Source: Myxococcota bacterium (GTDB lineage: Bacteria > Myxococcota_A > Polyangia > HGW-17). Taken from it: a DNA stretch of 32,441 nt. A model generated the notes under the pieces. The model did not search any database, was not told the origin of the DNA, and saw nothing but the letters and a program-made list of their open reading frames with translations. Location: contig JAHJLU010000476.1 of the NCBI GenBank assembly GCA_018821745.1, positions 1 to 32,441 on the forward strand. Direction: 5' to 3'. Positions within the stretch are counted from its first letter, which is position 1, and each line of letters starts with the position of its first letter. Of this stretch, positions 9,398 to 26,216 are shown one piece after another. The translations under genes were made by a program, and so were the position numbers.

Positions 9398-11053
9398 TTA
9401 GAGATTCCCTCCCGGATCAACGGTGATCGTGATGGTGGGAACCACATTATCGATGATTCCGTCCCTGTTTTCGTCGGAAAACAGGAGAGATCCTCCCATG
9501 AGGAGATCATCATGGGTGGTTGCCGGGAGGGTGAAGAGGAGGAGGTTACCAAAAAGAGTGAATGCCCGTTCCACATCCAGGGGATTAAGGCCTGAATTGA
9601 AAAGGGAAATCAACTCCTCCTGCCAGGTCGTGGTGCTGCCCTCCTGGATATAGCCTTTCATGCTCTCCATGATCTGTGGACCATCGAGGGGGAGAGAATA
9701 GGGGGCCAGAAATCGCGCCCACAGAATGTTGAGCGCGATGCGGCCAACCCCGGTTCTGTAAAAGGAATCAGGAATTATCAGGTTTTCGAGGATTCCATCG
9801 AAGCCTGTGACCGAGAAGGCGTCTGGGGCGAGATCTTCTGCGAGTGCGTGGGGTTCACTCCCCGCCACCGGGAAGGTGATGCTGCTGATGCTGATGGTCA
9901 TTTCGCCGGGGAGACTGGAGATCAGCGTGTCCACAGTGATCTGCTCAAAGGGGGCAAGCTCAAGGAATTGCCTCATGTTGGTCAGGGTGTGCTGCAGGGC
10001 CTGTATATCCGGGGAGAGGTTATGGAAGGCAGCCTCGAGGGAGGTGCCGCCATGGCTGTTGAGGGAACCCCTGCAGGAGCTGCCGTCAATGATGCCCCGC
10101 AGATCGATGATCTCTTCGGAGACGAGGGTCGGGGTTCCCCGCTGGCAGGCGGCGGCGTCGCCCCCCTCAAGCCACGACACCAGGCAGTCAAGGAGTTTTG
10201 TGCCGACGCCATAGGTGCAGCGGCCCAGATTGTGCCAGTCGGGGAGGGTGTTGGTGAGCCAGTCAGATACTCCCGACTCGGCCCCCGGGAGCGACATGGT
10301 CTGTGTCCCGTCCAGGGTGAGCAGGTAATCGGAGAGTGACAGGGTGAGGCTTGCGTTTCCTCCGGGGACCAGGGACTCGGGTGGCGGTGCCATGCAGCCG
10401 TATCCGACGGGATCCCCCGTCTCACCGAGAATTTTGGCGCCGAACACAAAGGGAATATCCACGGGAAGGTCTGCGTATTGGACCAGCTCATTGACGGAGG
10501 TCAGCGTGCGCCTGCGGGAGAAGGAGGCGAGGAACATGCTGGTGGCATCACAGGTAGTCTCGAAGAGGATGCCGACCTCCATGGAGTGGAGCTCTCCGAG
10601 GCGGGATCCGGTGTAGGAAAAGTCCAGGCTGAAATCGGCCATCCCCGACTCGGTGACGGTCACATCAAGAGAGAGGGGGGCTGCCCGTGATTGCGTGACG
10701 GCAATGGAGAAATGGGACGCAGAGGTGCCACTGTGGACGTCGATGCCAGCCAGCCCGTTCTCGTCTGTCAGAGCAAAGGAGGAGGAGAGGGAGGACCCCC
10801 CTGCCTGCCCGACGATGAGAAAATCGACCTGTGCGCCGGGGACAGGGGAACCGTCTGCGTCGGATACCAATATCCACAGTGGCTCGTCGGAGGCCGACAG
10901 CAGGTTGAGTTCGCCACTGAGGGGTTCGAAAAAGGAGAGCACATAGTTGCCCGTGTTGTTGGTGTTGTTGGTGTTGTTCTGTGAGACATAGCCCTCGTTT
11001 TTGCATCCGAGGAGAAGCAAAAGCAAAAATACACGGGTGAGAAGGCGGTGCAT
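9398..11053 (-). CDS. Putative lipoprotein with N-terminal bacterial Ig-like domain
   Basis: Lipobox LLLGC, NNTNNTNNT linker, and an Ig-like motif VSDADGSPVPGAQVDF...ALTDENGLA. Confidence 0.8.
   Translation of the reverse strand: MHRLLTRVFLLLLLLGCKNEGYVSQNNTNNTNNTGNYVLSFFEPLSGELNLLSASDEPLWILVSDADGSPVPGAQVDFLIVGQAGGSSLSSSFALTDENGLAGIDVHSGTSASHFSIAVTQSRAAPLSLDVTVTESGMADFSLDFSYTGSRLGELHSMEVGILFETTCDATSMFLASFSRRRTLTSVNELVQYADLPVDIPFVFGAKILGETGDPVGYGCMAPPPESLVPGGNASLTLSLSDYLLTLDGTQTMSLPGAESGVSDWLTNTLPDWHNLGRCTYGVGTKLLDCLVSWLEGGDAAACQRGTPTLVSEEIIDLRGIIDGSSCRGSLNSHGGTSLEAAFHNLSPDIQALQHTLTNMRQFLELAPFEQITVDTLISSLPGEMTISISSITFPVAGSEPHALAEDLAPDAFSVTGFDGILENLIIPDSFYRTGVGRIALNILWARFLAPYSLPLDGPQIMESMKGYIQEGSTTTWQEELISLFNSGLNPLDVERAFTLFGNLLLFTLPATTHDDLLMGGSLLFSDENRDGIIDNVVPTITITVDPGGNL
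10952..10979 (-). repeat. ~3 x 9-bp repeat encoding NNT-NNT-NNT
   Basis: + strand GTGTTGTTG GTGTTGTTG GTGTTGTT. Confidence 0.85.
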
Positions 11054-11160
11054 GGAGAGACTCCTGTAACCCCGTTCATGCCGGAAAAATGGACACTTCA
11101 GGGTATTGGCTCTATCACCCTATCACTATTTCAGTTGTTTTCAAGATCGCCGGGCGAGAA

Positions 11161-13035
11161 CTACTCGAAGGAGTATCCCATCTCTTCGGCTGAGGGGAGA
11201 TCGTAGAGTACGTCGTCCATGGGGTGGCGGTAGAGGGCTGACCTGAGGCGTTTCTGGTCGAAGTAGTGTCCCACCATTCCGATGGTCCGTCCGAGCATGA
11301 AGAGGCCGTTCAGGATGCCGAATTCGATGATTTCAGCTTTCTCTTCAGCACTGAAGAGATCTCCGCAAGCCGCCATAAGGTCGAGGAAGAGAATGCCGAT
11401 GGCTCCGTCCACGTTGAGGATCAGGTTGTTGCGCTTGGTGAGGGTGATTTTTTCCACTTCCAGCGCATAGTCCAGGTGAGGAGTCACGGGGAAATTCTCA
11501 CGGGCGAATTTTTTCAGCAGGGTCACCCTCACGTCGGGATTGGTCGCGCTCTTGATCTTGTGACCGATACCCTGGATGTTGATGCCCTTTGCCTTCATCT
11601 GCTGAATGAACTGCAGGGGAGTGATGTTTGCGGCCATGGCCTCGGAGAACATCTGGGCCGCACCGGAGACGGCACCGCCGAAGCGGGGGCCGATGGTGAG
11701 GATACCGGAAGCGACGGCGCTCATGAGGTCTCTGCCGGCTCTGGCGGTGATAATGGTGTTGTGGGCACCGGAGACACAGGGACCGTGGTCCGCGGTGAGC
11801 CGCAGCACGATCTCGATGAACTCGGAGGCGAAGGCCGGGAGTTTTTTCTTGAACCAGAGGAGCCCGATCATCTCGCCGAGGGGCATATTGGACTCAATGA
11901 CCTTGCTCATGGGGATGCCGCAGTAGAGGGGCTCATCGCCGCGGTCGTCGGTGATGGTGCAGATGATGCCCGTGGGTTTGCGCACGGCACCGGTCTTCTC
12001 GATGGTCTTGAGATCCTGGGGGATGGGGGGAATTTCCGGATCGGGGACCACCACGATGCTGCCGTTTGCGACGAGCTTCTCGTAGGTCTCGCGGATTTTG
12101 TCGCCGTAATCGTCGAAGGAGTTGGGGACGATGACGCCGGCTTCACGGAGCGCCGCATTTTTTGCCTCTGCGGTCTCGGCGCTGGAGCCTGCCTTGGCGC
12201 CCGCGTGGCCGAACTGAACCTCACCGGTCATTTTGGTGGCGATGGTTCCGGTTACCCAGCAGACCATGGGCTTCTTGATCCGGCCTTCCTTGACCGCTTC
12301 GACGATCTTGTACTCTTCGGTGCCGCCCACTTCGCCCAGACAGACCAGCATGGCGATGTCGGGGTTGGCCTCGTAGCGGAGGAGGTGATCGAGGAGCGTG
12401 GAGCCCGGATAAGAGTCACCGCCGATGGCGATGCCTTCGTAGAGGCCGTTGGAGTTCTGGGAGATGATATTGTAAGCCTCGTTGGACATGCCGCCGGACT
12501 TGGAGACGAACCCGACGCTCCCCTGTCTCTGGAGTTTGGATTCGATAATGGCGTCGATGGTGCCGCCGGTGTTGCCGATCTTGAATCCACCGGCCAGGAT
12601 GCCGCCGACGGTCGCGGGACCGATAACGGTCTTGCCCTTGGCAGTCGCCAGCGCGGCCAGCTCACGGGCGCGGCGCTCGGGGACACCCTCGGCGATGATG
12701 ACCACCGTGTTGATGGTGGGAACATCCATGGACTCGATGGAGGTGCCGTAGGCGCTGCGGAAGGAGGAGAAGTTGATCACCACGTCGGCTTTGGGGTGTC
12801 TCGCGGCAGCGGCGGCGATGTTCTGGTAGATGGGGATGAGGATCTCCCGGGTGCCCCAGAAGGTCTTGTGGTATCCACCGTTTTTCGCGCTGGGGTTAAT
12901 AATGGCGGCCACCGAGGGGGTCTCTCTTTTGCATACATAGTCAAAATCGAGCATGCGCTGGATGGCGTTGGGCTGCAGGTTGAAAATAATTGCCTGAGTT
13001 TGTTTGGAAAACAATTGATATGCAGGTTTAGACAT
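11161..13035 (-). CDS. aclA: ATP-citrate lyase alpha subunit (succinyl-CoA synthetase alpha-like domains plus citryl-CoA lyase domain)
   Basis: QRMLDFDYVC.R.TPSVAAI, IAEGVPER, IGPATVGG, phospho-His motif QFGHAGA, ADHGPCVSGAHN, IGPRFGGA, GIGHKIKS, LILNVDG. AAGGAG RBS. Confidence 0.96.
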   Translation of the reverse strand: MSKPAYQLFSKQTQAIIFNLQPNAIQRMLDFDYVCKRETPSVAAIINPSAKNGGYHKTFWGTREILIPIYQNIAAAAARHPKADVVINFSSFRSAYGTSIESMDVPTINTVVIIAEGVPERRARELAALATAKGKTVIGPATVGGILAGGFKIGNTGGTIDAIIESKLQRQGSVGFVSKSGGMSNEAYNIISQNSNGLYEGIAIGGDSYPGSTLLDHLLRYEANPDIAMLVCLGEVGGTEEYKIVEAVKEGRIKKPMVCWVTGTIATKMTGEVQFGHAGAKAGSSAETAEAKNAALREAGVIVPNSFDDYGDKIRETYEKLVANGSIVVVPDPEIPPIPQDLKTIEKTGAVRKPTGIICTITDDRGDEPLYCGIPMSKVIESNMPLGEMIGLLWFKKKLPAFASEFIEIVLRLTADHGPCVSGAHNTIITARAGRDLMSAVASGILTIGPRFGGAVSGAAQMFSEAMAANITPLQFIQQMKAKGINIQGIGHKIKSATNPDVRVTLLKKFARENFPVTPHLDYALEVEKITLTKRNNLILNVDGAIGILFLDLMAACGDLFSAEEKAEIIEFGILNGLFMLGRTIGMVGHYFDQKRLRSALYRHPMDDVLYDLPSAEEMGYSFE

Positions 13036-13058
13036 GTCGCACTCCTTTGCCTTGGCGG

Positions 13059-14339
13059 CTATCCGTTGATGTACTCGATACCCATGGGAACGATTTTTGT
13101 CATGTGGGTCTCGGGACCATACACGGTCACGGGGATACCCACCCGTTCACCCAGCTCTTTCATCCACACGAGACCCTGCTGGTAGTTGGGGCCACCGCGG
13201 CGGACAAAGATCTGAACCTTGGCTTTTTTGAGTCTGTCGGCATATTCTTCCACAGCTTTGATGATGCCCTTGAAGGTGAGGGCGACGTCGGTAAAGTTGG
13301 CGATGCCCCCTCCAATAAGGAGTGCTTTTTTCTCTCCGCTTCTGGTCATGAGATCCATGACGGTGGCGGCGTACTGGTAGGTGAGCTCTTCATTGGGGTT
13401 GCCGGAGTATTCTCCGTACATTCCAAGTTCGTTGATATACCCCATGTCGGAGACGGTGTCGGCGTAAATGACCGAGGCGCCGCCGCCGGCCACCATGGGC
13501 CAGATTTTTCCATCGGGGTTTAATATGGTGAGCTTGAGGGAGGCGCCGGTCTTGGCGTCCAGGTCCTTGATTCTGGCTTCCTCGGGGGAGAGTTTCTTCC
13601 CGAAGGCCATGGGGAACTCGTAATCGCGGCCCCAGGTGTCGAGATTTTCAAAGGCGGCGGTGTCGTCGAGTTTGGCCACCAGGTCAAGGGGGATAACCTT
13701 GCCGTCCACGAAGGCGAAGGGGTTGATCTCCAGGTAATCAAAACCCTGGTCCACAAAGAAGCGATAGAGGGCGTTGATAAAATTACCCACTTTTTCGAGT
13801 TCTTCACCCTGCAGGGGGAGCGAGGATTTCACGCAGACATCTTTTGCGCTGGTAATGACGCCGTCTTTCATAACCGGGATCTTGATCTCTTTGACCTTGT
13901 CCCAGTTCTCCTCCACGTTGATGCCACCGGCCAGGGAGAAATAGAGAACGTCTTCGTCCCGAAAGGAGCGGATGGCGATGTAGTATTCCTCTTTGTGGGG
14001 AATGAAGGGCTCAACCAGGAAGTGAGTGAGTTTGCCGCTGATGCTGCCGATGGTGGTCTCGCCAGCCATTTTCTCTTTTATCCATGCCTTGGCTTCTTCC
14101 CAGGTGGCGTCCAGTTTCAGCAGATTGTTCTTGCCTCTTTTGCCAAAAAGCATATCGGGCTTTGCCACGAGTTTTGTGGTCTTGAGCCAGGGCTCACTGG
14201 CCACGAGGGTGTCCATCTCCGTGTCGGGACCGATGAGCACGTAGTTGCTGTGCACATTAACGCCATCGATGGAATAACGGTTGATTGTTGAGGCCATGAG
14301 CTTCTTGCCGTCGTATTCGCGAATGCCTCTGATAGCCAT
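13059..14339 (-). CDS. aclB: ATP-citrate lyase beta subunit (ATP-grasp plus citrate-binding domain)
   Basis: IREYDGK, VAKPDMLFGKRGK, LEINPF, SLKLTILNP.G.IW.MVAGGGASVIYADT, YGEYSGNP, IGGGIANFTDVA.TF.G, RRGGPNYQQGL. AAGGAG RBS before the ATG at 14339. Confidence 0.96.
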   Translation of the reverse strand: MAIRGIREYDGKKLMASTINRYSIDGVNVHSNYVLIGPDTEMDTLVASEPWLKTTKLVAKPDMLFGKRGKNNLLKLDATWEEAKAWIKEKMAGETTIGSISGKLTHFLVEPFIPHKEEYYIAIRSFRDEDVLYFSLAGGINVEENWDKVKEIKIPVMKDGVITSAKDVCVKSSLPLQGEELEKVGNFINALYRFFVDQGFDYLEINPFAFVDGKVIPLDLVAKLDDTAAFENLDTWGRDYEFPMAFGKKLSPEEARIKDLDAKTGASLKLTILNPDGKIWPMVAGGGASVIYADTVSDMGYINELGMYGEYSGNPNEELTYQYAATVMDLMTRSGEKKALLIGGGIANFTDVALTFKGIIKAVEEYADRLKKAKVQIFVRRGGPNYQQGLVWMKELGERVGIPVTVYGPETHMTKIVPMGIEYING

Positions 14340-14394
14340 TGTCAACTCTCCTTCACACGTGAAACTGTCACGTCGTGTTCTGCCCTGTGAGGGG

Positions 14395-14434
14395 AAAAAG
14401 TGGTCGACGGACCATCATCGGTCCGTCGACCACT
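14395..14434 (-). terminator. Rho-independent terminator between aconitase and aclB
   Basis: 15-bp perfect stem AGTGGTCGACGGACC / GGTCCGTCGACCACT with a 6-nt loop, followed by a T run on the minus strand. Confidence 0.8.
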
Positions 14435-14455
14435 GTGGGTTACAAGTTTACTCAA

Positions 14456-16372
14456 TCAGCTGGCTTTTGCCCTGGTGTAGGCAAGGATGCCGCCGCACAT
14501 GAGGATGTCAAGGTCACGCTGTCCCAGCTCGATTGTAACAGGAATGTCGGTGCCCTTGGTGAGGTTTTTGCCCACCAGTTTGCCCGTGGGGAGGCCGGCG
14601 AGATCGATGTGGATCTTGTCGCCCATGTCAATGGCGTCTGTGTCGGTCTCGAAGGGGAAGATTCCCGCGTTGATGAGGTTTGCCTTGTGAATACGGGCGT
14701 AACTCTTGGCGAAGACCGCCTTGATGTTGAGCTGCCAGGGGGCCAGTGCCGCGTGCTCGCGGGATGAACCCTGTCCGTAGTTGTCACCGCCGATGATGAA
14801 TCCGCTGCTGGCCGCTTCAGCGCGCTTGGCAAACTCGCGATCAATATAATAATAGGTGTATTTTGCGATCTCCGGGAGGTTTGAGCGCAGGTGCTGGGTC
14901 AAAGAGCCCGCGGGGAGGATGTCGTCGGTGGAGATGCCGTCGCCGACCTTGAGGAGGACTTCAGCTTCGAAGCTCGCCGGAGGAGGAGTCTGGGGCCTGA
15001 TGGCCTTGATGTTGGGTGCCCGTTTTACTTCGACCTTGGAGGCATCGGCCTCGGCCACGGGGGGGAGGATCATGGAGTCATCGATATCGAAGCCTTCCTC
15101 GAAGACATCTTGAAACTCCGGGTATTCCAATTTTCTGGGGTCGGCCAGTTTGCCCGCGATGGCAGAGGCGACGGCCACTTCCACGGAGGCGAGGATGAGC
15201 TTGCCGTCTTTGGAGCCGCCGCGTCCCAGCCAGTTGCGGTTGACGGTCCGTACAGAGTAATGCTGGTATCCGGGGACGAAGCCCATGCCGATGCAGGCAT
15301 GGCATCCGGGTTCCAGCATCCGGACGCCGGAGCGGACCATGGTCTCGAAGGTGCCATCTTCCAGGAGCTGCTGCTCCACCTGCCGTGAGCCCGGGGAGCA
15401 GGCGACCTCGATCTCCTTGTTGACTCTGCGGCCTTCGAGCATGAGTCCCGCGATGGCCATGTCGCGGTAGGAGCCGTTGGTGCAGGAACCCAGGTAGACC
15501 TGGTGGATCGGTGTGCCCTCGACTTCGCTGATGGGCTTGATGTTGTCGGGGGAGCCCGGCATGGCGACCAGTGGCTCAAGGTTGTCCATGTCTACGGTAA
15601 TCTCTTTATCATAGACGGCGTCTGCATCGGCCTCAAGGCTGATCCAGTCTCGCTCGCGGGACTGCTGCCTGAGGAATTCAAGGGTGACGTGATCCGAGGG
15701 GAACACGGAGGTGGTGGCGCCGGTCTCTGCGCCCATGTTGGTGATGGTGGCGCGCTCGGGGATAGAGAGGGTGTCAACGCCGGGACCGGTGTATTCAATG
15801 ATATAACCGACTCCACCCTTGACCGTGAGCTGGCGGAGAACCTCGAGGACCACATCTTTGGCGGCGACGCCGTGCTGGAGTTTGCCGAGGAGGTTGACTT
15901 TCATGACCTTGGGGACGCGAGTGTAGAAATACCCGCCGCCCATGGAGACGGCCACGTCTGCGCCGCCGGCGCCGATGGCAATCATACCCAGGGCCGAGGA
16001 GGTGGGAGTATGGGAGTCACTGCCCAGGAGGGTTTTTCCGGGAGCGGCGAAGCGTTCGTAATGAACCTGATGGCAGACGCCGTTTCCGGCTTTGGAATAG
16101 AAGGCGCCGAATTTCTGGGCGACCGTTCTGAGGAACAGGTGGTCGTCCGAGGATTCCCCCTTGAAACTCAGAGAGGTATGATCAACGTAGGACACTGCTA
16201 CTTCGCACTTTACCTTGGGGAGTCCCAGGGACTCGAACTGGAGCCACGCCATGGTGCCCGTGGAGTCCTGGGTGAGGCACTGGTCGATTTTGAGCCCTAT
16301 GACGGAGCCCTTTTCAAGTTTGCCTTCGCCAATGTGAGTGGAAAGGATCTTCTCGGTTACTGTTAAACCCAT
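14456..16372 (-). CDS. acn: Aconitate hydratase (compact ~640-aa single-chain type)
   Basis: TQDSTGTMA, YVDH, GNGVCHQ, GSDSHTPT, N.GAETGAT, Fe-S ligands GSCTN and C..CIGMG, NRNW.GR, swivel domain ISTDDILPAG and NYGQGSSREHAALAP. AGGAGG RBS. Confidence 0.92.
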   Translation of the reverse strand: MGLTVTEKILSTHIGEGKLEKGSVIGLKIDQCLTQDSTGTMAWLQFESLGLPKVKCEVAVSYVDHTSLSFKGESSDDHLFLRTVAQKFGAFYSKAGNGVCHQVHYERFAAPGKTLLGSDSHTPTSSALGMIAIGAGGADVAVSMGGGYFYTRVPKVMKVNLLGKLQHGVAAKDVVLEVLRQLTVKGGVGYIIEYTGPGVDTLSIPERATITNMGAETGATTSVFPSDHVTLEFLRQQSRERDWISLEADADAVYDKEITVDMDNLEPLVAMPGSPDNIKPISEVEGTPIHQVYLGSCTNGSYRDMAIAGLMLEGRRVNKEIEVACSPGSRQVEQQLLEDGTFETMVRSGVRMLEPGCHACIGMGFVPGYQHYSVRTVNRNWLGRGGSKDGKLILASVEVAVASAIAGKLADPRKLEYPEFQDVFEEGFDIDDSMILPPVAEADASKVEVKRAPNIKAIRPQTPPPASFEAEVLLKVGDGISTDDILPAGSLTQHLRSNLPEIAKYTYYYIDREFAKRAEAASSGFIIGGDNYGQGSSREHAALAPWQLNIKAVFAKSYARIHKANLINAGIFPFETDTDAIDMGDKIHIDLAGLPTGKLVGKNLTKGTDIPVTIELGQRDLDILMCGGILAYTRAKAS

Positions 16373-16556
16373 GTTATTCCTCCTGAAAAAGTATATGTTC
16401 TAAACAAAGACTGATGAATCACCAAATTTATTTGATTGGAACTGATTGTGTGCGGTTGACGGTCCGGATAGCGTAAAATTTCTACCATGGGCTGTCCCTG
16501 AACAGTTGCCCGTTCAGAGAATATTACCTGAATGGGTGTCTGTGGAGGTAACTACG

Positions 16557-16584
16557 TTTATAACCAATAGAGTTTGAATGACAA
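16557..16584 (-). promoter_or_regulatory. Candidate sigma70 promoter for aconitase (TTGTCA-N16-TATAAA)
   Basis: Consensus-like hexamers in AT-rich intergenic DNA ~185 nt upstream of the start codon. Confidence 0.45.
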
Positions 16585-16900
16585 CAGGACAAAGGCGTTT
16601 TTTTCACTTTTTTCACGATTTGGTATGTGGGGCTGTGAACCTTGCTGCAGGATAAATGAAGAGAGCTGGTATGGCAGAAATCCGCAATAGAAAAGAATGC
16701 TATAAGAAACTCTCCTTCGAAAGCTTATCAATAAAAGATTTAGATGATTCAGAATAAAATTGGATTATACCAGATTGACTGGAATATTACAATATTAACG
16801 GATAATCAAGGAGATCTGTCAGATGCGTGGAGACAGGATTCCCTTGCCTGGAACTCCCTCGCCTACTATAATTCCTGCACACCATTATTTGGAGGGCGCC

Positions 16901-18043
16901 ATGGATACCCAACACGCAGTTTTATCAAAAACGGAGCACTCTTTGTTGCTCAAGCGGATGGCGCTTGTCTCCGAAGATCCTATCGTCGGTTGCCTCATGA
17001 AACTCATGGCGGGGGTGGTGCTCGTTCTCGACGAGAATCGGCAAATCATCGGTGTGAACCAGAGCGCGCTCGCCAAAATGGGCATTGCCGGTGGGACGGA
17101 GCAGATCCTTGGCCTGCGTCCGGGGGAGGCTTTCCACTGCAAGTTCTCCAAAGAAGACCCAAACGGGTGCGGGAACACCCCCTATTGCGAAACGTGCGGT
17201 GCGGCTCTTGCGATTATCAGTGGGCTGAACCCCGGCGGGGAGAGTGTCCGCTACTGTTCCATGACCACCGTGGAGGAGGGGGGTGAAGCCAACTATTTGT
17301 TCCGCGTGACGGGGAGATATCTGAACCTGGGGAGCTCCCACGCAGTGCTGGTGCTCTTTGAAGACGTGACCCTGAGCCAGCTGTGGTCCACCATGCACAA
17401 CAGCTTCCTCCATGATCTCAACAACACCGCCACGGCCCTCATTGGCACGGCTGAACTCCTTGATATAAGTGGTGAAGAGAAAGAACTCGTTGACGACATG
17501 AAGGTGCTCTCCCGGAGGCTCTCCAAGGAGATCGATATCCACCGCTGCCTGCTGGGTGATATGAACGCCTCCCTGCGCACCGACCTCACGGAGATAACCC
17601 TTGGCCAGATCTATTCGGAGCTTACGGGGAGAGTCAGGCAGTTCCATGACCGCAAAGGACGCGACGACTTCAGGCTCATGCCGGGGTGTGAGAATATTGC
17701 GGTCTTCAGCGATTTTACCCTCCTCTTGCGGGTGATCTTCAACATGGTGACCAACGCCATGGAGGCAACCCGTGCACACGAGACTGTGACCCTTGGGGCG
17801 ACTCACAGGGGAGACATGGTGACCATCTTTGTCCACAACCCGGGGATGATTCCCGTGGCTGTTCAGCGACGCATCTTCCAGCTCCATTTTTCCACAAAAT
17901 CCAGCATGGGAAGGGGCACGGGGACGGCCTCCATGAGGCTCATCGGCGAGAGATTTCTGGGGGGAAGCGTGGGGTTTGTTTCGACCGAGTCCGAGGGCAC
18001 CGTGTTCACTATAGAGCTGCCGTCCCCCGCGGCCATTCAGTAG
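16901..18043 (+). CDS. Cytoplasmic sensor histidine kinase with Cys-rich PAS-like N-terminal domain
   Basis: GGAGG RBS then ATG at 16901. H-box FLHDLNN, N-box IFNMVTNAMEA, F-box IFQLHFSTKS, G2 GRGTGT. PAS-like VLVLDENRQIIGVNQSA followed by Cx9Cx5Cx2C. Confidence 0.92.
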   Translation: MDTQHAVLSKTEHSLLLKRMALVSEDPIVGCLMKLMAGVVLVLDENRQIIGVNQSALAKMGIAGGTEQILGLRPGEAFHCKFSKEDPNGCGNTPYCETCGAALAIISGLNPGGESVRYCSMTTVEEGGEANYLFRVTGRYLNLGSSHAVLVLFEDVTLSQLWSTMHNSFLHDLNNTATALIGTAELLDISGEEKELVDDMKVLSRRLSKEIDIHRCLLGDMNASLRTDLTEITLGQIYSELTGRVRQFHDRKGRDDFRLMPGCENIAVFSDFTLLLRVIFNMVTNAMEATRAHETVTLGATHRGDMVTIFVHNPGMIPVAVQRRIFQLHFSTKSSMGRGTGTASMRLIGERFLGGSVGFVSTESEGTVFTIELPSPAAIQ

Positions 18044-19917
18044 GAGACACGAAACACTTTGCCGGCGCGCAGGAGGATCTCCTTCTCGCGGGTTGCGATT
18101 CCCTTGCCCGCGACAATGACGCTGGCCCGGATGGTGGGTTGATTCCAGATCCGGGGGAAGGATACCTCAAGGGGCGCTCCCGGTGTGCCCGAGAGTGTCT
18201 GCTTGTTTCCTTCAAGGAGGCGCACCGCCACGGCGCTCCCAGCGGGGGCGGTGACGATAACCCTTGCGGGTCGCCACGTGAGGCGCTGGGCGATCTTGCT
18301 TCCAGCCATATCTTCTTGAATTACAACCGTTTTTGTGTAGCACAGGGGGTGCTTGAACACCAGGACGTGTTTCCCCGGCCCAACGGATACAGAGGAGATG
18401 GCGGGAGGGCGCGGTCCCCACTGTCCAAGGGTTTTCCCGTTGAGGATAATGGTGACCTGTCCCTGGGGAAAGGGAAAGATCTGGAAGGATCGCTGGACGC
18501 CTGCCATGACAGGCAACTTCACCATGTGCTGCGGGTGCATGACGGGGCGAATTCTCATGGATGGCCCCATGTTCATGGAGAGACCCGGCTCCATGCCCAT
18601 CTCCATGGTGGGAGGGGTCATCACATCGAAGGGGGAGCCGTCATCAACGAGGCTGACGGGGGGATCCATGTCCATATCGGAGACGGGAGTGCTGTCATTG
18701 GTCACAGGAATCATGGCAGGCTTTCCCATGACCGTGGATTTGGCCGCAACCCGGGTGTGGGGCTTGTGTACCTTTGAGGAGGGGCTGTTGCGCATCAGAA
18801 GGAAGATGACGACGCCCAGAATCAAGGCTCCCGTTGCGGCGGCCACCGCCGCGATGATCTTCCACGGGCGCCTTCGTTCCAAGGCCTGGAGCTCATCAAA
18901 GAGCAGGTTCACCTCATCGTTGTCGGGGACCAGATGGAGCAGCCGGGCTACGATTTGCTGGCCCATGGGTGTTGCCACCTGGGCCTTTGCGAGCTCCAGA
19001 AAAGAATCAACAACCCGGGGAAAGAGCTCGTCTTCCGTGGCGTTCTGGTTGGCCACCAGTTTTTTGACGAGGGCCGGGATTGTCTTCGCCTCGATTCCTG
19101 CCATGGCCAGGAGCTTCTCGATGGAAACCAGCAGCGCCGCTGTTGACTCTGGACGATCCTCCGGGTCCTGCTCCATGCACTTGCGGATGAGGCGGGCAAC
19201 AGGAGCCCCGATCTCGGGGCGAACGGATTCGGGATCGGGGTAATCCGTCTCGGCGATTTTAATAAGGACCGCGTGGGGGTTGTTCCCGGTAAACGGGAGC
19301 TCCCAGGTGGACATCTCGTAGAGGAGAATTCCCAGGGAGAAAATATCCGACGCCTTGCCGGAACTCTTGCCCTTGATGATCTCGGGGGCCATGAAGGCGG
19401 GTGAGCCGAGGATCTGGCCCGTGGACGTGATCCCCGGGTTCTCCACAATTCTCGAGATCCCAAAGTCCATGAGTTTTATCTGACCATCGGTGGTGATCAT
19501 GATGTTTTCGGGCTTGAGATCCCTGTGGATAATGCCCATCTCGTGGGCATGATTGAGCGCAGTGGTGATCTGATGCAGGATAAGGAGTGCCGACTCCGCC
19601 AGGAGGAGACGGTGGTCCTCCAGGAAGCTTGCCAGCGTGATCCCGTTGACAAACTCTGTGACGATATAGGCGTGTTTGGAGTTTTTGCCGGAATAATCAA
19701 AAACATTGGGGATGAGAGGGTGATTGAGGCTTGCCACGGCGCGGGCTTCTGACTGGAGGCGCTTGCGGGCCTGGATATCTTCGGTGAGATACGGATGGAG
19801 GAGTTTGAGCGCGACGATCCTTCCCAGTGAAGTATCTTCGGCCCTATAGACTACAGCCATCCCGCCGCGTCCGACCTCTTCCAGCAGTGAGTATTTATCG
19901 ATCTTCTTGTTATCCAT
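18037..19917 (-). CDS. Membrane-anchored Hanks-type Ser/Thr protein kinase
   Basis: GRGGMAVVY, VALK, HRDLKPEN, DFG, FMAPE, SDIFSLG. One TM helix (IIAAVAAATGALILGVVIFLL), a Met/Pro-rich linker and a PEGA-like C-terminus. Confidence 0.96.
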   Translation of the reverse strand: MDNKKIDKYSLLEEVGRGGMAVVYRAEDTSLGRIVALKLLHPYLTEDIQARKRLQSEARAVASLNHPLIPNVFDYSGKNSKHAYIVTEFVNGITLASFLEDHRLLLAESALLILHQITTALNHAHEMGIIHRDLKPENIMITTDGQIKLMDFGISRIVENPGITSTGQILGSPAFMAPEIIKGKSSGKASDIFSLGILLYEMSTWELPFTGNNPHAVLIKIAETDYPDPESVRPEIGAPVARLIRKCMEQDPEDRPESTAALLVSIEKLLAMAGIEAKTIPALVKKLVANQNATEDELFPRVVDSFLELAKAQVATPMGQQIVARLLHLVPDNDEVNLLFDELQALERRRPWKIIAAVAAATGALILGVVIFLLMRNSPSSKVHKPHTRVAAKSTVMGKPAMIPVTNDSTPVSDMDMDPPVSLVDDGSPFDVMTPPTMEMGMEPGLSMNMGPSMRIRPVMHPQHMVKLPVMAGVQRSFQIFPFPQGQVTIILNGKTLGQWGPRPPAISSVSVGPGKHVLVFKHPLCYTKTVVIQEDMAGSKIAQRLTWRPARVIVTAPAGSAVAVRLLEGNKQTLSGTPGAPLEVSFPRIWNQPTIRASVIVAGKGIATREKEILLRAGKVFRVSY

Positions 19918-20004
19918 TACATCGCCGTCATCAGGGATGGATTTCCATCCGCCCCAGTAATACCACGACCCGCTTCTTTTCTACACTGTTTTATAGGGGT
20001 TTCT

Positions 20005-22344
20005 TTATCCGGCCGCTTCACCGATGAGAAGATCCTGGTTGATCGCCATGGCAATTTTTTTTGCTGGCTCATGTTCGGGTCTTGAGAGCCCGGGATCCTC
20101 GTCAAGAATGGTTCTGGCGTCGGCCCGCGCCTTGAGGAGCCATGCAAGCAGGGCTCTCCCAAGGAGCATGCTCCCCGACTTCAAACCCAGATCTCCCGAT
20201 TGCCGAGTGCCGATCATCTCGCCAGGGCCCCGCATGCGGAGATCCTCCTCGGCAAGCATGAAACCGTCGTGGTTGTTTGCCAGCAGCTCCAGGCGCTCCT
20301 TCCCCTCGGGAGAAGGTCGCCGTGAGGTGAAGAGGGTGCAGCGGGCGGTGAGATCAGCTCTTCGCCCGACTCTGCCGCGGAGCTGGTGGAGCTGGGCCAA
20401 CCCGAACCGATCAGCTTCCATGATGATCATGTTGGAGGCGTCTGGGATATCCATGCCCACCTCAATGACCGTGGTGGTCACCAGCAGGTTTGTCTTTCCC
20501 AGCCGGAAGTCCTGGATAATTTCATCCTTTCGGGTGCTGTCCATTCGCCCGTGGAGGGCGGCGATCCGTGCCTCTTTCATGTTTTCGTGAAGGTACTCCA
20601 GCACCGTCTCCAGATCGGTGCGGCCGGTCTCCTCGCTCTTGTCGATGAGGGGGACCACCACGAATCCCTTCTCACCCTGTGACAGAAATGTATCCAACCG
20701 GGAAATGACCTTCTTCTTTTCGGGCTGCTTTGAACAGATGCTGGTGAAAGGAGGGGTGCGCCCCGGGGGCATTCCATGGATAATGGACTGATCCAGATCG
20801 CCGTAGGCGGTGAGCGCCAGAGTTCTGGGGATGGGAGTGGCGGTCATTACGACCAGGTGTGGCAGGTCTCCTTTTTCGCGGAGACGTGCTCTCTGGGCAA
20901 CACCAAAACGGTGTTGTTCATCAATAATGACCAGGCCGAGGTCGTCAAACCTCACTCTGTCCTGTATCAACGCGTGGGTCCCAACGAGCAGGTTGATGTG
21001 GCCGGATTCCAACATGGCCAGCAGTGACTCGCGCTCGCCGGAGGTGAGCTCGGAGGTGAGCAGCGCGCTCTTCATGCCCAGCTTTTTCGCCCACTGGGAC
21101 ATGGTGATAAACTGTTGCTGTGCGAGAATTGTTGTGGGTGCCATGCAGGCAACCTGTCGGCCTGTGAGCATTATGTGTGCCGCCAAAATGAACGCAACTG
21201 CAGTCTTGCCGCTTCCCACGTCTCCCTGGAGGAGGCGGTTCATGGGGATCCCCGATTCCATATCGGTGAGCATCTCCTCCACTGCCTGCTGTTGGCCCGC
21301 AGTCAGGGGGAAGGGAAAGACAGAGAGGATGTCCCGGTGGTGCTCGCGCAGGATACGGCACGCACCCGTTGCTCTGGACTGGTTTTGTCGCATGGAGAGG
21401 GCGAGCTGGAGGAAAAAGAGCTCCTCGTAGGCGATGCGGATGAAGGCGCTGTGTTTTCTCTGGAGCAGAAGTTCAAGATCCTCGCCGCACAGCTCACTGT
21501 GGGGCCTGTGAGCCAATTTACGCGCCTTGTGCCATGAGGGAAACTCATGACGTTCAATGATGCTCCGGGGTAAGGGGTCCGCATATTCCTCCGGGAGGAG
21601 GGCGAGGGCGTTCTCCATGATGTTTGTGAAGGTCTTCTCTCCCACACCCTGGATTTTCGAATAGATCACCTGGATCTCCCGGGGGCGCTCCAGGGAGAAC
21701 CCGGGGTGACTCAGGGTGAACTCTTTTCCCCGCAGTGTGGGGCGTCCCCAGAACCAGAAAGCGGCTCCCTTTTTGATCACCGCGGCGATTCCCGGCCACG
21801 CGTGGAACCAACTGAGACGGACTGTACCGGAACCGTCGGTCGCCTCTGCAAAGCAGCGTCCCCGCGCCGCCATCACTTTGGTGAGGGTGACGTGGATCAG
21901 GGAAAATTCTCCGTCGGCAAGCTGGGCTACGGGGATTGGGGTTCTCAGATCCAGATAGTCCCGGGGGTAGAAAGCCATGAGGTCGCCGAGGGTAGCTATT
22001 CCTGCCGCTTTGAGGCTCTCTTCGATTTTTGGACCGACCCCCTTCACCACCGAGAGGGGGCTCTGATGAAAACGCTCCAGGGGCGAGAGATCGTCATCAC
22101 CGGACAGGGAAACTTTCGTCTTTTTTTTACGGACGGGTTTCTCCTTGAGGAGGCCGCTGTCGAAGTACCGCAGGCCCTCCCCGCACAGTTTTGCCGAGGG
22201 GTAGTCGGCGTCGAGGATCTTTGATGCCCAGATTTCACAGCCATCTGTGGTGCAGATGGCCCTGGAGATGAGCTCTTTGAGCGCATTCCACCCCTCGAGA
22301 TCGCTGTTGGTCATGGAAAAAAGGAGGCGTTCACGGAGATTCAT
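20005..22344 (-). CDS. recG: ATP-dependent DNA helicase RecG
   Basis: VKGVGPK, FYPRDYLD, MNRLLQGDVGSGKT, IDEQHRFGV.QR, MTATPIPRTL, TTVIEVG, RFGLAQLHQLRGRVGR, DLRMRGPGE..GTRQSG. Confidence 0.97.
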   Translation of the reverse strand: MNLRERLLFSMTNSDLEGWNALKELISRAICTTDGCEIWASKILDADYPSAKLCGEGLRYFDSGLLKEKPVRKKKTKVSLSGDDDLSPLERFHQSPLSVVKGVGPKIEESLKAAGIATLGDLMAFYPRDYLDLRTPIPVAQLADGEFSLIHVTLTKVMAARGRCFAEATDGSGTVRLSWFHAWPGIAAVIKKGAAFWFWGRPTLRGKEFTLSHPGFSLERPREIQVIYSKIQGVGEKTFTNIMENALALLPEEYADPLPRSIIERHEFPSWHKARKLAHRPHSELCGEDLELLLQRKHSAFIRIAYEELFFLQLALSMRQNQSRATGACRILREHHRDILSVFPFPLTAGQQQAVEEMLTDMESGIPMNRLLQGDVGSGKTAVAFILAAHIMLTGRQVACMAPTTILAQQQFITMSQWAKKLGMKSALLTSELTSGERESLLAMLESGHINLLVGTHALIQDRVRFDDLGLVIIDEQHRFGVAQRARLREKGDLPHLVVMTATPIPRTLALTAYGDLDQSIIHGMPPGRTPPFTSICSKQPEKKKVISRLDTFLSQGEKGFVVVPLIDKSEETGRTDLETVLEYLHENMKEARIAALHGRMDSTRKDEIIQDFRLGKTNLLVTTTVIEVGMDIPDASNMIIMEADRFGLAQLHQLRGRVGRRADLTARCTLFTSRRPSPEGKERLELLANNHDGFMLAEEDLRMRGPGEMIGTRQSGDLGLKSGSMLLGRALLAWLLKARADARTILDEDPGLSRPEHEPAKKIAMAINQDLLIGEAAG

Positions 22345-22362
22345 GCTGGTGAGATCGTGCTG

Positions 22363-22971
22363 CTACTTGAACGTGAACCGGACCTGATTTTCACAGAGAC
22401 TGAAAATGTCGCCCTCATCAATGCGTTTGTTGTCAATGCGCATGCCGTTGTATTCGATGCCGTTTGTGGATCCGAGATCCTTGATGTAATACTGGCCGTT
22501 GCGCTTGATGACCGCCGCGTGCTTTCGGGAAATATTGGCATCTTTGATGGTGAGGTCGCACAGTTTGCTCACCCGCCCGATGATAAACTGATCCTTGTCA
22601 ATGGGGAGCTTCTCGTCCTCATGGATGATGTAGAGGGTGAGCGGCGCCGAATCGGGCTTTGACTCGCTGAAAAGTTCTGCCCCGAGGCTGAAGGCACCAG
22701 AGCTTGTGGCCCTTCGACCCGCAACGGGGATGGGGGGCATGACGTTGTTCTGGTTGATGGCGAATTCAACCGTCGGCGGGTTGGTGCTGCCCGTGGGAAT
22801 CTGGGATCCGGCACTCTCCCCGAACTCATACCCTTTATTCTTTGCGTAGTGCCGCATGGCCTCATTGATGAGATAATCCACAGAAACGGCGAAATCAGAA
22901 GCCATGGTCTCGAAGATTTCCCAATAGGCGTCCCGACAGTAGAAATGCCGCATTGATTTTTTTGCGTCCAT
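22363..22971 (-). CDS. FHA-domain protein with N-terminal ribbon-helix-helix-like region
   Basis: FHA motifs FIIGR, ISRKHA and DLGSTNG. The N-terminus has a beta strand plus ...SVDYLINEAMRHY. GAGGAGG RBS. Confidence 0.9.
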   Translation of the reverse strand: MDAKKSMRHFYCRDAYWEIFETMASDFAVSVDYLINEAMRHYAKNKGYEFGESAGSQIPTGSTNPPTVEFAINQNNVMPPIPVAGRRATSSGAFSLGAELFSESKPDSAPLTLYIIHEDEKLPIDKDQFIIGRVSKLCDLTIKDANISRKHAAVIKRNGQYYIKDLGSTNGIEYNGMRIDNKRIDEGDIFSLCENQVRFTFK

Positions 22972-24561: not shown

Positions 24562-24725
24562 GAAACACCTTTGGTGAAGGGTCCGATGTGGCAGTTTGTC
24601 GGTGCTGCCCATGAGAGAGAACGGAAAGAATCCGTGGGCCGCATTATAGGACCTGTGAGGCCCTACGTCAATTGCGGCAACCAAAGTGCTTGACACGCAA
24701 CGGACAAAACGGAAAAGATACGCCC

Positions 24726-26216
24726 ATGGAAATCAGTTATAAAATCTTGATCGTTTCCAGTTCTTCCCGGACCAGATTCATTGCGTCCTTGTTTAACAAC
24801 ACCCTCGGGGAACCGGGATCCGAAGGAATTACCGTCAGGGACGAGGGCTCGGCAACTGCTTATCGTCTTCATTTTGTAGAAGGATTTGATGCCGCTTTTG
24901 TGGCCCTTCGGAGCCAGCCTTTTCAGGGACTCATCCTTGAGGGGGACTTTGATGGTCAGAGCGGCCTGAGGTTTTTGCAGACGCTGTCCAACATCCCATA
25001 TAATATCAGAAATGTAACACCGCGTCAGGTGCTGCTGCTGTACATCGGGGAGGCCCCCTCCGCCGACACCCTGCTCCGTCTGGGCAAGCTCAACGCCGGT
25101 GGTGTCCATGTGGTAAACGGCGGGAAACGAAAGGGCGAGAGGACCAGCATTTTTCACTCTCTTTCCCAGGTGCTGCGACCGAGGAACTCCGGCAAGACAG
25201 CCATCTGTCTTGCGGGTGGAGGGATCGAGGGGCTGATCTATGAGACAGGGGTGCTCAGGGCCATCGACGAAATTCTGGTTGGCCGCAGTGTGACCGAGTT
25301 TGATCACTTCTATGGCATCAGCGCGGGGAGCGTCGTCTCTTCCATCGTGGCCAACGGCGTGCCTCCCTCTGAAATCGCCAAGGCATTCATGCTGGATTCC
25401 ACTGTTATCAGCCCGATCAAGTCTTCCTCCCTGTTTGACCCCGCCATATCGGAAATTGGTGGTCGGCTCCTGAGCCTCATCACCTCATCGGCGGACGAGC
25501 GGGGGTGGTTGTTTCCCCGACTCTTCTCCGTTATTCCCAGCGCCCTCTTCAAAGGAGATCGCATCGAAAAAATGCTGGAGAAGGGCTTCTCGGAGGTAGG
25601 ACGAACCAACAGCTTCGAAGAGCTGGGGGGGAAACTCTTTATTGGAGCGACGGATCAGGACACCAGTGAGCATATTGTTTTTGGAACCCCCGGGTGGGAG
25701 CATGTCCCTATCTCCAGGGCGATTCACGCCTCCCTCTCCCTCATCCCGTTTTATGCACCCCAGTGTATCAGCGGTCGCTGGTTCATCGACGGCTCCTTTA
25801 CCAGGACCTCCGAGGTGGAGTTGGCAATCGCCCAGGGGGCCACACTCATCGTTGTGGTGGACCCGCTCATCCCCATAAAGGCTTCCCAGTCGGGGTATGT
25901 TCGATCAAAAGGTGGTGTTTTTGCCACCATTCAGTCTATCAAAGCCCTTGTGAACACGCGCTTCATGGGAATGCTTCCCCACCTGGTGGAGTCTCATCCC
26001 GAGGTGGACTTCCTCATCTTTCTCCCCGGCGAGGAGGATATGTCCATCATGAGCGGGACTCTCTTCAAATACCGGTACCGCATGGAGATTGATCGCATCG
26101 CCTATGACGCTGCACTCGACACCATGAGGAAAGATGAGGTGAGGGTCCGTGAAATTTTTGCCAGACACGGCTTTGAAGTTTCCATTCCCCAGGGAAACTC
26201 CAACGGTGCATCCTGA
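24726..26216 (+). CDS. Patatin-like phospholipase/esterase with N-terminal extension
   Basis: Oxyanion motif LAGGGIEG, nucleophile motif GISAG (GxSxG), catalytic FIDGS, IHASLS. Confidence 0.92.
   Translation: MEISYKILIVSSSSRTRFIASLFNNTLGEPGSEGITVRDEGSATAYRLHFVEGFDAAFVALRSQPFQGLILEGDFDGQSGLRFLQTLSNIPYNIRNVTPRQVLLLYIGEAPSADTLLRLGKLNAGGVHVVNGGKRKGERTSIFHSLSQVLRPRNSGKTAICLAGGGIEGLIYETGVLRAIDEILVGRSVTEFDHFYGISAGSVVSSIVANGVPPSEIAKAFMLDSTVISPIKSSSLFDPAISEIGGRLLSLITSSADERGWLFPRLFSVIPSALFKGDRIEKMLEKGFSEVGRTNSFEELGGKLFIGATDQDTSEHIVFGTPGWEHVPISRAIHASLSLIPFYAPQCISGRWFIDGSFTRTSEVELAIAQGATLIVVVDPLIPIKASQSGYVRSKGGVFATIQSIKALVNTRFMGMLPHLVESHPEVDFLIFLPGEEDMSIMSGTLFKYRYRMEIDRIAYDAALDTMRKDEVRVREIFARHGFEVSIPQGNSNGAS

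Follow-up and report, generated by a model that had tools for sequence, protein, structure and literature searches.

The window analysed here, meaning the whole 32,441-nt stretch at its full length, is a contig of a Myxococcota genome bin, and it carries on its minus strand three adjacent genes, acn, aclB and aclA, encoding an aconitase and the two subunits of an ATP-citrate lyase (ACL). These genes are not to be read as a sign of CO2 fixation; ACL in the place of citrate synthase is the best-supported reading, with the direction of flux left open. We are confident that the genes form a stand-alone branch outside any CO2-fixing cycle. The fuller statement, that ACL replaces citrate synthase and works mainly in the citrate-forming direction, within a linear module supplying 2-oxoglutarate in an anaerobic, fermentative and non-autotrophic host, is one whose truth and falsity we judge about equally probable when it is taken as a whole.

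The operon consists of three co-directional open reading frames (ORFs). The first, acn (14456..16372, minus strand), encodes a compact aconitate hydratase of 638 aa with PF00330 and PF00694 domains, matching NF005558 at 810.9 bits (cut-off 612) and TIGR01342 at 778.2 bits (cut-off 719). It is followed after a spacer of 110 nt by aclB (13059..14345, minus strand), whose product, the 428-aa beta subunit, has an ATP-grasp domain (PF24948, ATP-citrate-synthase type, 247.5 bits, cut-off 83) and a citrate-binding domain (PF16114, 273.1 bits, cut-off 26.8), the latter without a match in 14 control genomes (0/14). The listed start codon of aclB is TTG, and the true methionine may lie two codons further in. 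After another 23 nt comes aclA (11161..13035, minus strand), encoding the 624-aa alpha subunit with CoA-binding/phosphohistidine and citryl-CoA lyase domains (PF00549, SucD-like CoA-ligase, 73.4 bits; C-terminal PF00285, citrate-synthase-like, 73.1 bits, residues 395-597). H277 of AclA, which lies in a GHAGA motif and which we take to be the phosphorylated histidine, is the same in all 17 sequences of alignment A1 and pairs with the 'fghaga' of 6hxi_B, while D543 (LILNVDG) pairs with a site that is Asp in the wild-type 6hxi_B and Ala in the mutant 6znw_B, both from Methanothrix. From its sequence, aclBA is predicted to encode a genuine, active two-subunit ACL of the Methanothrix/eukaryote-like type, accompanied by its own aconitase. 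An earlier reading of the window made from the letters alone (hereafter the sequence-only reading) had described complete two-subunit ACL genes directly downstream of a compact aconitase, and this description stands, with three ORFs at these coordinates, full domains and collinearity with the Methanothrix enzyme.

The ACL of Methanothrix soehngenii/concilii (6HXI, 6ZNW) has the same two subunits in the same domain order, and its phosphohistidine loop and lyase aspartate are kept in the window's enzyme; AclA residues 1-619 align with 6hxi_B residues 1-616 (826.5 bits) and AclB residues 3-424 with 6hxi_A residues 1-418 (511.2 bits). The settings differ, since here the host is bacterial and the operon opens with a compact aconitase, whereas Methanotrichaceae loci have only a downstream LeuC-like gene (34-36% identity). 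To our knowledge, there is as yet no agreed physiological role for the archaeal enzyme. Human ACLY (6HXH, 6O0H), which supplies cytosolic acetyl-CoA from exported citrate, belongs to the same enzyme clade as the archaeal type (789 bits against the AclA part, 380 bits against the AclB part), but it is a single fused chain, whereas the window's enzyme has two subunits in a host without such compartment logic. A eukaryote-like export of acetyl units as the role of ACL was dropped, as a bacterium has no compartment for it. The AclBA of Chlorobium limicola (6HXJ) catalyses the same reaction with the same two-subunit architecture and is far more distant (AclA 386.9 bits, AclB 174.3 bits), so that by bit score the window's ACL stands far closer to its human and Methanothrix counterparts than to that of Chlorobium. 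The ACL passage of PMC11976288 places eukaryotic ACL beside DPANN and Thermoplasmatota sequences and draws there no ACL link to Myxococcota.

The distribution of ACL was assessed across the order to which the bin belongs, represented by 23 species-level genomes including the bin itself, 10 of which reach a completeness of 90% or more and stay at or below 5% contamination. The window's family consists of the bin and 13 relatives, six of them 94-97% complete. AclB was found in 18 of the 23 genomes, including 12 of the 13 family relatives, and ACL is therefore a stable trait of the order rather than an accident of one contig; elsewhere in the phylum, a strong AclB match (259-289 bits) was obtained in only 6 of 400 evenly sampled genomes. 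AclA gives the only PF00285 match of the bin and likewise of 12 of its 13 family relatives, the 13th having none at all. Canonical citrate synthase (423-464 bits) was detected in five of the 23 genomes, four of which have no ACL (G414, G415, G416 and G418), the fifth being the ACL-bearing G422 (65% complete). Citrate synthase is hence present in 1 and absent from 17 of the genomes with ACL, and present in 4 and absent from 1 of those without it, the last being G413, which has neither enzyme. As all these genomes come from a single order and are related by descent, the counts are given without a statistic. The near mutual exclusion, with AclA as the bin's sole citrate-synthase-family match, agrees with the proposal of the sequence-only reading that ACL replaces citrate synthase or serves citrate catabolism. 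No candidate for a Re-citrate synthase or isopropylmalate synthase was found: each of the five genomes searched (5/5) yields a single HMGL-like match, which in the three genomes annotated is the oxaloacetate decarboxylase alpha subunit, followed by OadB.

The phylogeny of AclA, a quick, unrooted tree without eukaryotes, was inferred from the window, three order relatives and the 80 prokaryotic loci nearest to the window, less three that were dropped because their matches were short or interrupted (77 used). The window's AclA clades with six of the bins named uncultured Kofleriaceae or Deltaproteobacteria and the order relative G419 with a support of 100 in the Shimodaira-Hasegawa-like approximate likelihood-ratio test (SH-aLRT), and the sister groups of this clade are the order relative G421 and a set comprising Riflebacteria, Ozemobacter and Methylomirabilis (SH-aLRT 98). 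The ACL of G417, the sole ACL-bearing and citrate-synthase-less member of an otherwise citrate-synthase-bearing family, groups instead with Thermotogota and Bipolaricaulota (SH-aLRT 100), a placement that indicates a separate origin. Because of this separate origin, together with the lack of citrate synthase in that family setting, G417 represents a second, independent case of ACL taking over from citrate synthase. AclA identities of 61-65% are typical, across archaea and bacteria, in the 80 nearest loci. Proteins P0003-P0015 and P0024 (~1000-1040 aa) show a tandem AclA-AclA' duplication, the window's AclA aligning twice to P0003 (residues 3-599 at 55% identity, residues 575-1021 at 49% identity); AclB does not align to them, and an interpretation of P0003-type proteins as AclB-AclA fusions was rejected.

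Outside the order, the genomes of 50 of the 80 related loci, from other phyla, were searched, omitting six of the window's clade and 24 others, mostly Methanotrichaceae and Bathyarchaeota. A citrate-synthase match of at least 200 bits occurs in 9 of these 50 genomes, whose completeness is not known, and one of the nine is broken by two TAG codons; a further 9 of the 50 show a second, weaker and uncharacterised citrate-synthase match (111-146 bits). AclA is the only match in 32 of the 50, and 41 have no citrate-synthase match of at least 200 bits. The broken gene belongs to a Methanothrix sp. (G432, locus L034, contig C1 82712-83922), where the match falls into two parts (88.6 and 304.8 bits), the longer with two TAG codons in frame; the gene is perhaps a pseudogene, or TAG may be read as a residue. 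Five archaeal genomes with ACL (G425, G446, G439, G448 and G458; loci L025, L051, L043, L053 and L073) contain frames of 715-841 aa with a near full-length but weak citrate-synthase-family match (119-145 bits), which look like a citrate-synthase-like protein fused to another part, and a similar match (145.9 bits) lies in a 359-aa frame of G450 (L056).

Gene order around aclBA extends the unit by one step. Of the 80 related loci, 13 have a compact aconitase immediately preceding aclB, 20 have an aconitase separated from aclB by a single gene on its upstream side, and 6 have one elsewhere in the locus; 30 loci have no aconitase despite at least 2.1 kb of upstream sequence, and 11 could not be assessed. 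An isocitrate dehydrogenase gene (icd) adjoins aclB in 21 of the 80 loci, and a monomeric isocitrate dehydrogenase lies downstream of aclA in 4. As acn and icd are repeatedly linked with aclBA, the recurring unit comprises ACL, aconitase and isocitrate dehydrogenase, which together span acetyl-CoA plus oxaloacetate to 2-oxoglutarate in either direction. The bin encodes a monomeric isocitrate dehydrogenase on another contig (C769, 1278 bits), as do 10 of its 13 family relatives, and a PF00180-type enzyme was found in two of the remaining three relatives and in all nine genomes of the order's other three families; by these family matches, isocitrate dehydrogenase occurs across the order in two exchangeable forms.

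In the proposed scheme, acetyl-CoA and oxaloacetate would be interconverted with citrate by ACL, citrate with isocitrate by aconitase, and isocitrate with 2-oxoglutarate by the monomeric NADP-isocitrate dehydrogenase encoded elsewhere in the genome. The pathway would be linear and non-cyclic, with ACL filling the place of citrate synthase, and each citrate formed by ACL would save one ATP. 2-oxoglutarate would then be converted to glutamate by an NADP-glutamate dehydrogenase (GDH), and a fragment of an NADP-specific GDH is present in the bin (498.8 bits). Citrate formation is favoured because the host has no alternative way of making 2-oxoglutarate de novo, given that the Kor route needs succinyl-CoA, for which no source was found. 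It is favoured also by the combination of the exclusion between ACL and citrate synthase, the G417 swap, the NADP specificity of the GDH and the precedent of Desulfobacter postgatei. The ACL of D. postgatei stands in for citrate synthase and reportedly, in work by Moller et al. from 1987, is used in the citrate-forming, ATP-yielding direction. The parallel is partial, since D. postgatei, whose sequence was not compared, has a complete oxidative cycle and sulfate respiration, whereas here a truncated branch is found in an apparent fermenter. Nothing pointed to a closed oxidative cycle of the D. postgatei type, with no SdhA in the bin or in 12 of its 13 family relatives and no haem-copper oxidase in any of the 14 family genomes (0/14; sulfate and other anaerobic respiration were not searched). 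A passage of PMC12137691 that cites the D. postgatei work describes the reactions of ACL and 2-oxoglutarate:ferredoxin oxidoreductase as fully reversible, and an excerpt of PMC8085960 reports citrate formation by D. postgatei with a gain of ATP.

Several observations weigh against ACL working as a citrate-forming enzyme in this host. The direction of flux is not readable from sequence, and the same excerpt of PMC8085960 states that ATP-yielding citrate formation requires abundant substrates and little product. No source of oxaloacetate was established: a crude motif regex search of the bin gave no usable candidates for phosphoenolpyruvate (PEP) carboxylase, PEP carboxykinase, malic enzyme or glutamate synthase (GOGAT), which in a 77%-complete bin is no evidence of absence, and a pyruvate carboxylase was likewise not demonstrated. 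Of the motif candidates in the bin, two for 'Pta' and two for 'GDH' had no family match and were discarded. A LeuB-type (PF00180) enzyme was found neither in 11 of the 13 family relatives nor in the bin, and family f1 (G401-G410, G413 and the bin) looks leucine-auxotrophic from its gene content. Because LeuB and isopropylmalate synthase are missing and IOR- and VorB-type enzymes are present, the family is perhaps an amino-acid consumer with no need for glutamate synthesis. The genomes of the order are not independent samples, and the bin, at 77% completeness, is without even NadB, which all 22 order relatives have by score. Finally, the family has a Na+-pumping oxaloacetate decarboxylase (OadA 770.6 bits, cut-off 756.5; OadB 529.7 bits), the classical partner of citrate cleavage.

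These last points bear on the strongest alternative, in which the same stand-alone module runs in reverse as a catabolic, citrate-cleaving route, a reading that we regard as possible though rather doubtful. Glutamate and amino acids feeding it would enter as 2-oxoglutarate, which would be reductively carboxylated to isocitrate by the NADP-isocitrate dehydrogenase and converted to citrate by aconitase; ACL would split citrate at the expense of one ATP, oxaloacetate would be decarboxylated by the Na+-pumping OadGAB and pyruvate oxidised by PorCDAB, so that two acetyl-CoA would yield ATP via acetate kinase and surplus electrons would leave as H2. The bin or its family has all the enzymes that such a route needs, including the GDH fragment, acetate kinase, isocitrate dehydrogenase, acn-aclBA, por and hydrogenase, and the genes birA, a small ORF, oadA and oadB were detected too. 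In G421, the gene order acn-icd-aclB-aclA is followed a few kb downstream on the same contig by porCAB, NuoEF-like genes and a hydrogenase-like gene; the amino-acid diet suggested above fits the route as well, and cleavage is the thermodynamically easier direction according to the excerpt of PMC8085960. No malate dehydrogenase of the lactate dehydrogenase (LDH) type was found, and decarboxylation is therefore the evident sink for oxaloacetate under citrate cleavage. However, 22 of the order's 23 genomes have OadB, among them those that possess citrate synthase and no ACL; OadB has, therefore, no phyletic tie to ACL and is uninformative on direction. Citrate cleavage also leaves unexplained both the exclusion between ACL and citrate synthase and the G417 swap, which took place in an otherwise similar family background, and the GDH is of the NADP-specific type, which is usually assimilatory. 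A literature search for fermentation by way of glutamate, ACL and oxaloacetate decarboxylase returned no paper. In enterobacterial citrate fermentation, citrate lyase CitDEF is combined with the Na+-pumping oxaloacetate decarboxylase OadGAB. OadA and OadB are shared with that system, and cleavage of citrate followed by decarboxylation of oxaloacetate would work alike; here, in contrast, the cleaving enzyme would be an ATP-dependent ACL and not an acyl-carrier citrate lyase, and OadB is not linked phyletically to it. Fermentation of external citrate was dropped as an explanation, as it would need neither a co-transcribed aconitase nor a recurrent icd.

ACL as a replacement for citrate synthase is to be preferred by a wider distance over a complete reductive tricarboxylic acid (TCA) cycle fixing CO2, the missing enzymes of which would have to be unassembled or of unrecognised families; we consider such a cycle improbable, and on the genes detected it is not supported in this family. 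The bin, which is merely 77% complete, does contain ACL, aconitase, isocitrate dehydrogenase, pyruvate:ferredoxin oxidoreductase, class I fumarase (found in 5/5 genomes searched; the C-terminal domain of class II fumarase occurs in 1/5) and a NiFe hydrogenase. Judged by score and frame length, 11 of the 13 family relatives, two of them annotated, possess a KorAB-like two-subunit 2-oxoacid:acceptor oxidoreductase (TIGR03710, 557.9 bits), the substrate of which cannot be read from sequence; the enzyme was not found in the bin. The pyruvate oxidoreductase genes lie on contig C14 (L097 2927-7755) in the order porC-(porD)-porA-porB, followed by NuoE/HoxE-like and NuoF-like genes; PorA (468.7 bits, equivalog cut-off 550) and PorB (397.5 bits, cut-off 405) are clear as to family while narrowly missing their cut-offs, and the bin also has a VorB-type alpha subunit and two IorA genes. 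From this gene order, the pyruvate oxidoreductase may be coupled to an NAD(P)-linked hydrogenase or a bifurcating module. In the corresponding region of G421 (contig C96, L120 11866-18253), porCAB and the NuoE/HoxE-like and NuoF-like genes are followed by a HoxU/[FeFe]-hydrogenase-like gene. The NiFe hydrogenase of the bin, split over two contigs and under equivalog cut-offs, resembles the cytosolic, NADP-linked sulfhydrogenases and is unlike uptake enzymes.

The remaining steps of the cycle were not recovered. For the flavoprotein of fumarate reductase or succinate dehydrogenase, the bin has neither a PF00890 match better than E = 1e-6 nor a tblastn match to the SdhA of a relative. In 12 of the 13 family relatives there is a single strong FAD_binding_2 match, which in G407 is L-aspartate oxidase (NadB, 704.8 bits, cut-off 629); the other 11 were taken as NadB by similar score and length only. 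The exception is G413, a genome of the same genus (73% complete, 3% contamination), with a Bacillus-type SdhA/FrdA (979.8 bits) alone on a 2.7-kb contig of 65.8% G+C, well away from the bin's 55.9 +/- 2.6%, an assignment that is doubtful yet not dismissed. Canonical succinyl-CoA synthetase was absent from all 10 family genomes searched with PF00549 (Ligase_CoA), in which the matches are AclA, FdrA-type acyl-CoA synthetases and, in two genomes, a SucD-like protein, the one annotated scoring 287.7 bits against a cut-off of 336. FdrA-type enzymes were seen in G404 (contig C92, L142 2628-4298) and G413 (contig C135, L143 2212-3618), at 527 and 471 bits (cut-off 433), and by similar score probably occur in three further family genomes. 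LDH-type malate dehydrogenase (PF02866) was found in none of five family genomes (0/5; other malate dehydrogenase families and CoA-transferases were not searched). Chlorobium, in contrast, has a complete reductive cycle, whereas the searches of the window's family turned up, the doubtful G413 contig aside, neither fumarate reductase nor canonical succinyl-CoA synthetase nor LDH-type malate dehydrogenase. Other routes of autotrophy fared no better, with acetyl-CoA synthase in 0 of 14 family genomes and RuBisCO in 0 of the 23 genomes of the order. Because NadB is missing too, the bin's own gaps are weak evidence, and the argument rests on the relatives, including the six at 94-97% completeness; the gaps of the bin appear to mirror those of these more complete genomes. 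For high-G+C relatives, gene calling relied on a codon-position G+C filter, and the G409 locus (L134) was left unannotated.

The sequence-only reading had offered unreported carbon fixation through the reductive TCA cycle as one of two outcomes, and this part of it finds no support, given the lack of Frd in the bin and in 12 of 13 relatives, of canonical SucCD in the 10 family genomes searched and of LDH-type malate dehydrogenase in the five searched. It had also held that absence of Kor, Por and Frd would speak against carbon fixation: Frd was indeed not found, which under that rule counts against it, but Por is present, and the KorAB-like enzyme is present in relatives. The genome search that it had outlined turned up icd, Por and a NiFe hydrogenase, and neither citrate synthase, Re-citrate synthase nor Frd. 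That the contig was mis-binned or is a recent foreign insertion, making the operon uninformative on the metabolism of the lineage, is hardly credible, for although this type of ACL has passed from one phylum to another (archaea and bacteria are intermingled in the tree, and the G417 copy is Thermotogota-like) and the bin has 3.29% contamination, AclB occurs in 12 of 13 relatives of the same family, the window's AclA clades with them (SH-aLRT 100), and the 32-kb contig is bin-like in G+C (55.1% versus 55.9 +/- 2.6%) and carries a PknB-type kinase, an FHA-domain protein and other ordinary bacterial genes.

The bin comprises 4.96 Mb in 862 contigs (N50 7 kb), among which the window ranks third in length, and a search of it for a 16S rRNA gene found none. 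The AclA genes most similar to the window's (76-79% identity) come from bins named uncultured Kofleriaceae or Deltaproteobacteria, and one protein cluster with 79% identity to the window's AclA carries both the names 'Deltaproteobacteria bacterium' and 'Myxococcota bacterium', in agreement with the Myxococcota-like genome that had been proposed from the letters alone. As to whether the genome belongs to a known reductive TCA lineage, which would have removed the novelty, the host is not of a classical reductive TCA phylum, but this type of ACL is already annotated in related bins, with related proteins named 'ATP citrate synthase' in public records. A literature search for ACL or the reductive TCA cycle in Myxococcota returned survey papers only, none of them on function in this lineage.

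The operon is thus ordinary in kind, a member of the Methanothrix-type ACL in a lineage where ACL is conserved, and it adds little on the enzyme family itself, the structure of which is solved. What is added here is that ACL alternates with citrate synthase across the order and that the remainder of the cycle was shown to be missing. In metagenome surveys aclAB is routinely scored as a marker of carbon fixation through the reductive TCA cycle, and this order provides a well-sampled case where that inference fails, the acn-(icd)-aclBA genes being better treated as a self-contained module that connects acetyl-CoA and oxaloacetate with 2-oxoglutarate. More tentatively, and as a generalisation that we think slightly more likely to fail than to hold, ACL may be the working, ATP-gaining citrate synthase across the order and, by extension, in most citrate-synthase-less anaerobes with acn-(icd)-aclBA. 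If so, aclAB in metagenomes would point to autotrophy much less often than to the replacement of citrate synthase, and the formation of citrate with substrate-level phosphorylation would be widespread and not a curiosity of D. postgatei.

Regulatory signals around the operon are faint. A candidate sigma-70-like promoter (TTGTAA-17-TATAAT with a TG; 16764..16792, minus strand) lies ~390 nt upstream of acn and is weak and not above chance, as positions 10800-17000 contain 4 promoter-like sites against 2.8 +/- 1.9 in shuffled sequences. Terminator-like sites in the same region show no excess either (9 against 6.4 in shuffles); two of these, overlapping weak hairpins with 5-bp stems followed by a T run, fall in the gap between acn and aclB (14401-14420, minus strand). 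In one metatranscriptomic run, two contigs (209 and 262 nt) are identical to parts of aclA and acn at a depth of ~2, which is too little for a statement on expression, with DNA carry-over uncontrolled. Six sequencing runs contain part of the window, each less than half of its words, and these small shares were not used to assign a habitat. Elsewhere in the window, a 514-aa patatin-like phospholipase (24672-26216, plus strand) shows at its N terminus a weak similarity to anti-phage phospholipase models, which at 36 and 27 bits falls well short of the cut-offs. Upstream of a histidine kinase gene that diverges from acn, genes for an FHA-domain protein, a RecG helicase (687.8 bits, cut-off 718) and a PknB-type Ser/Thr kinase stand in a row (18037-22971, minus strand).

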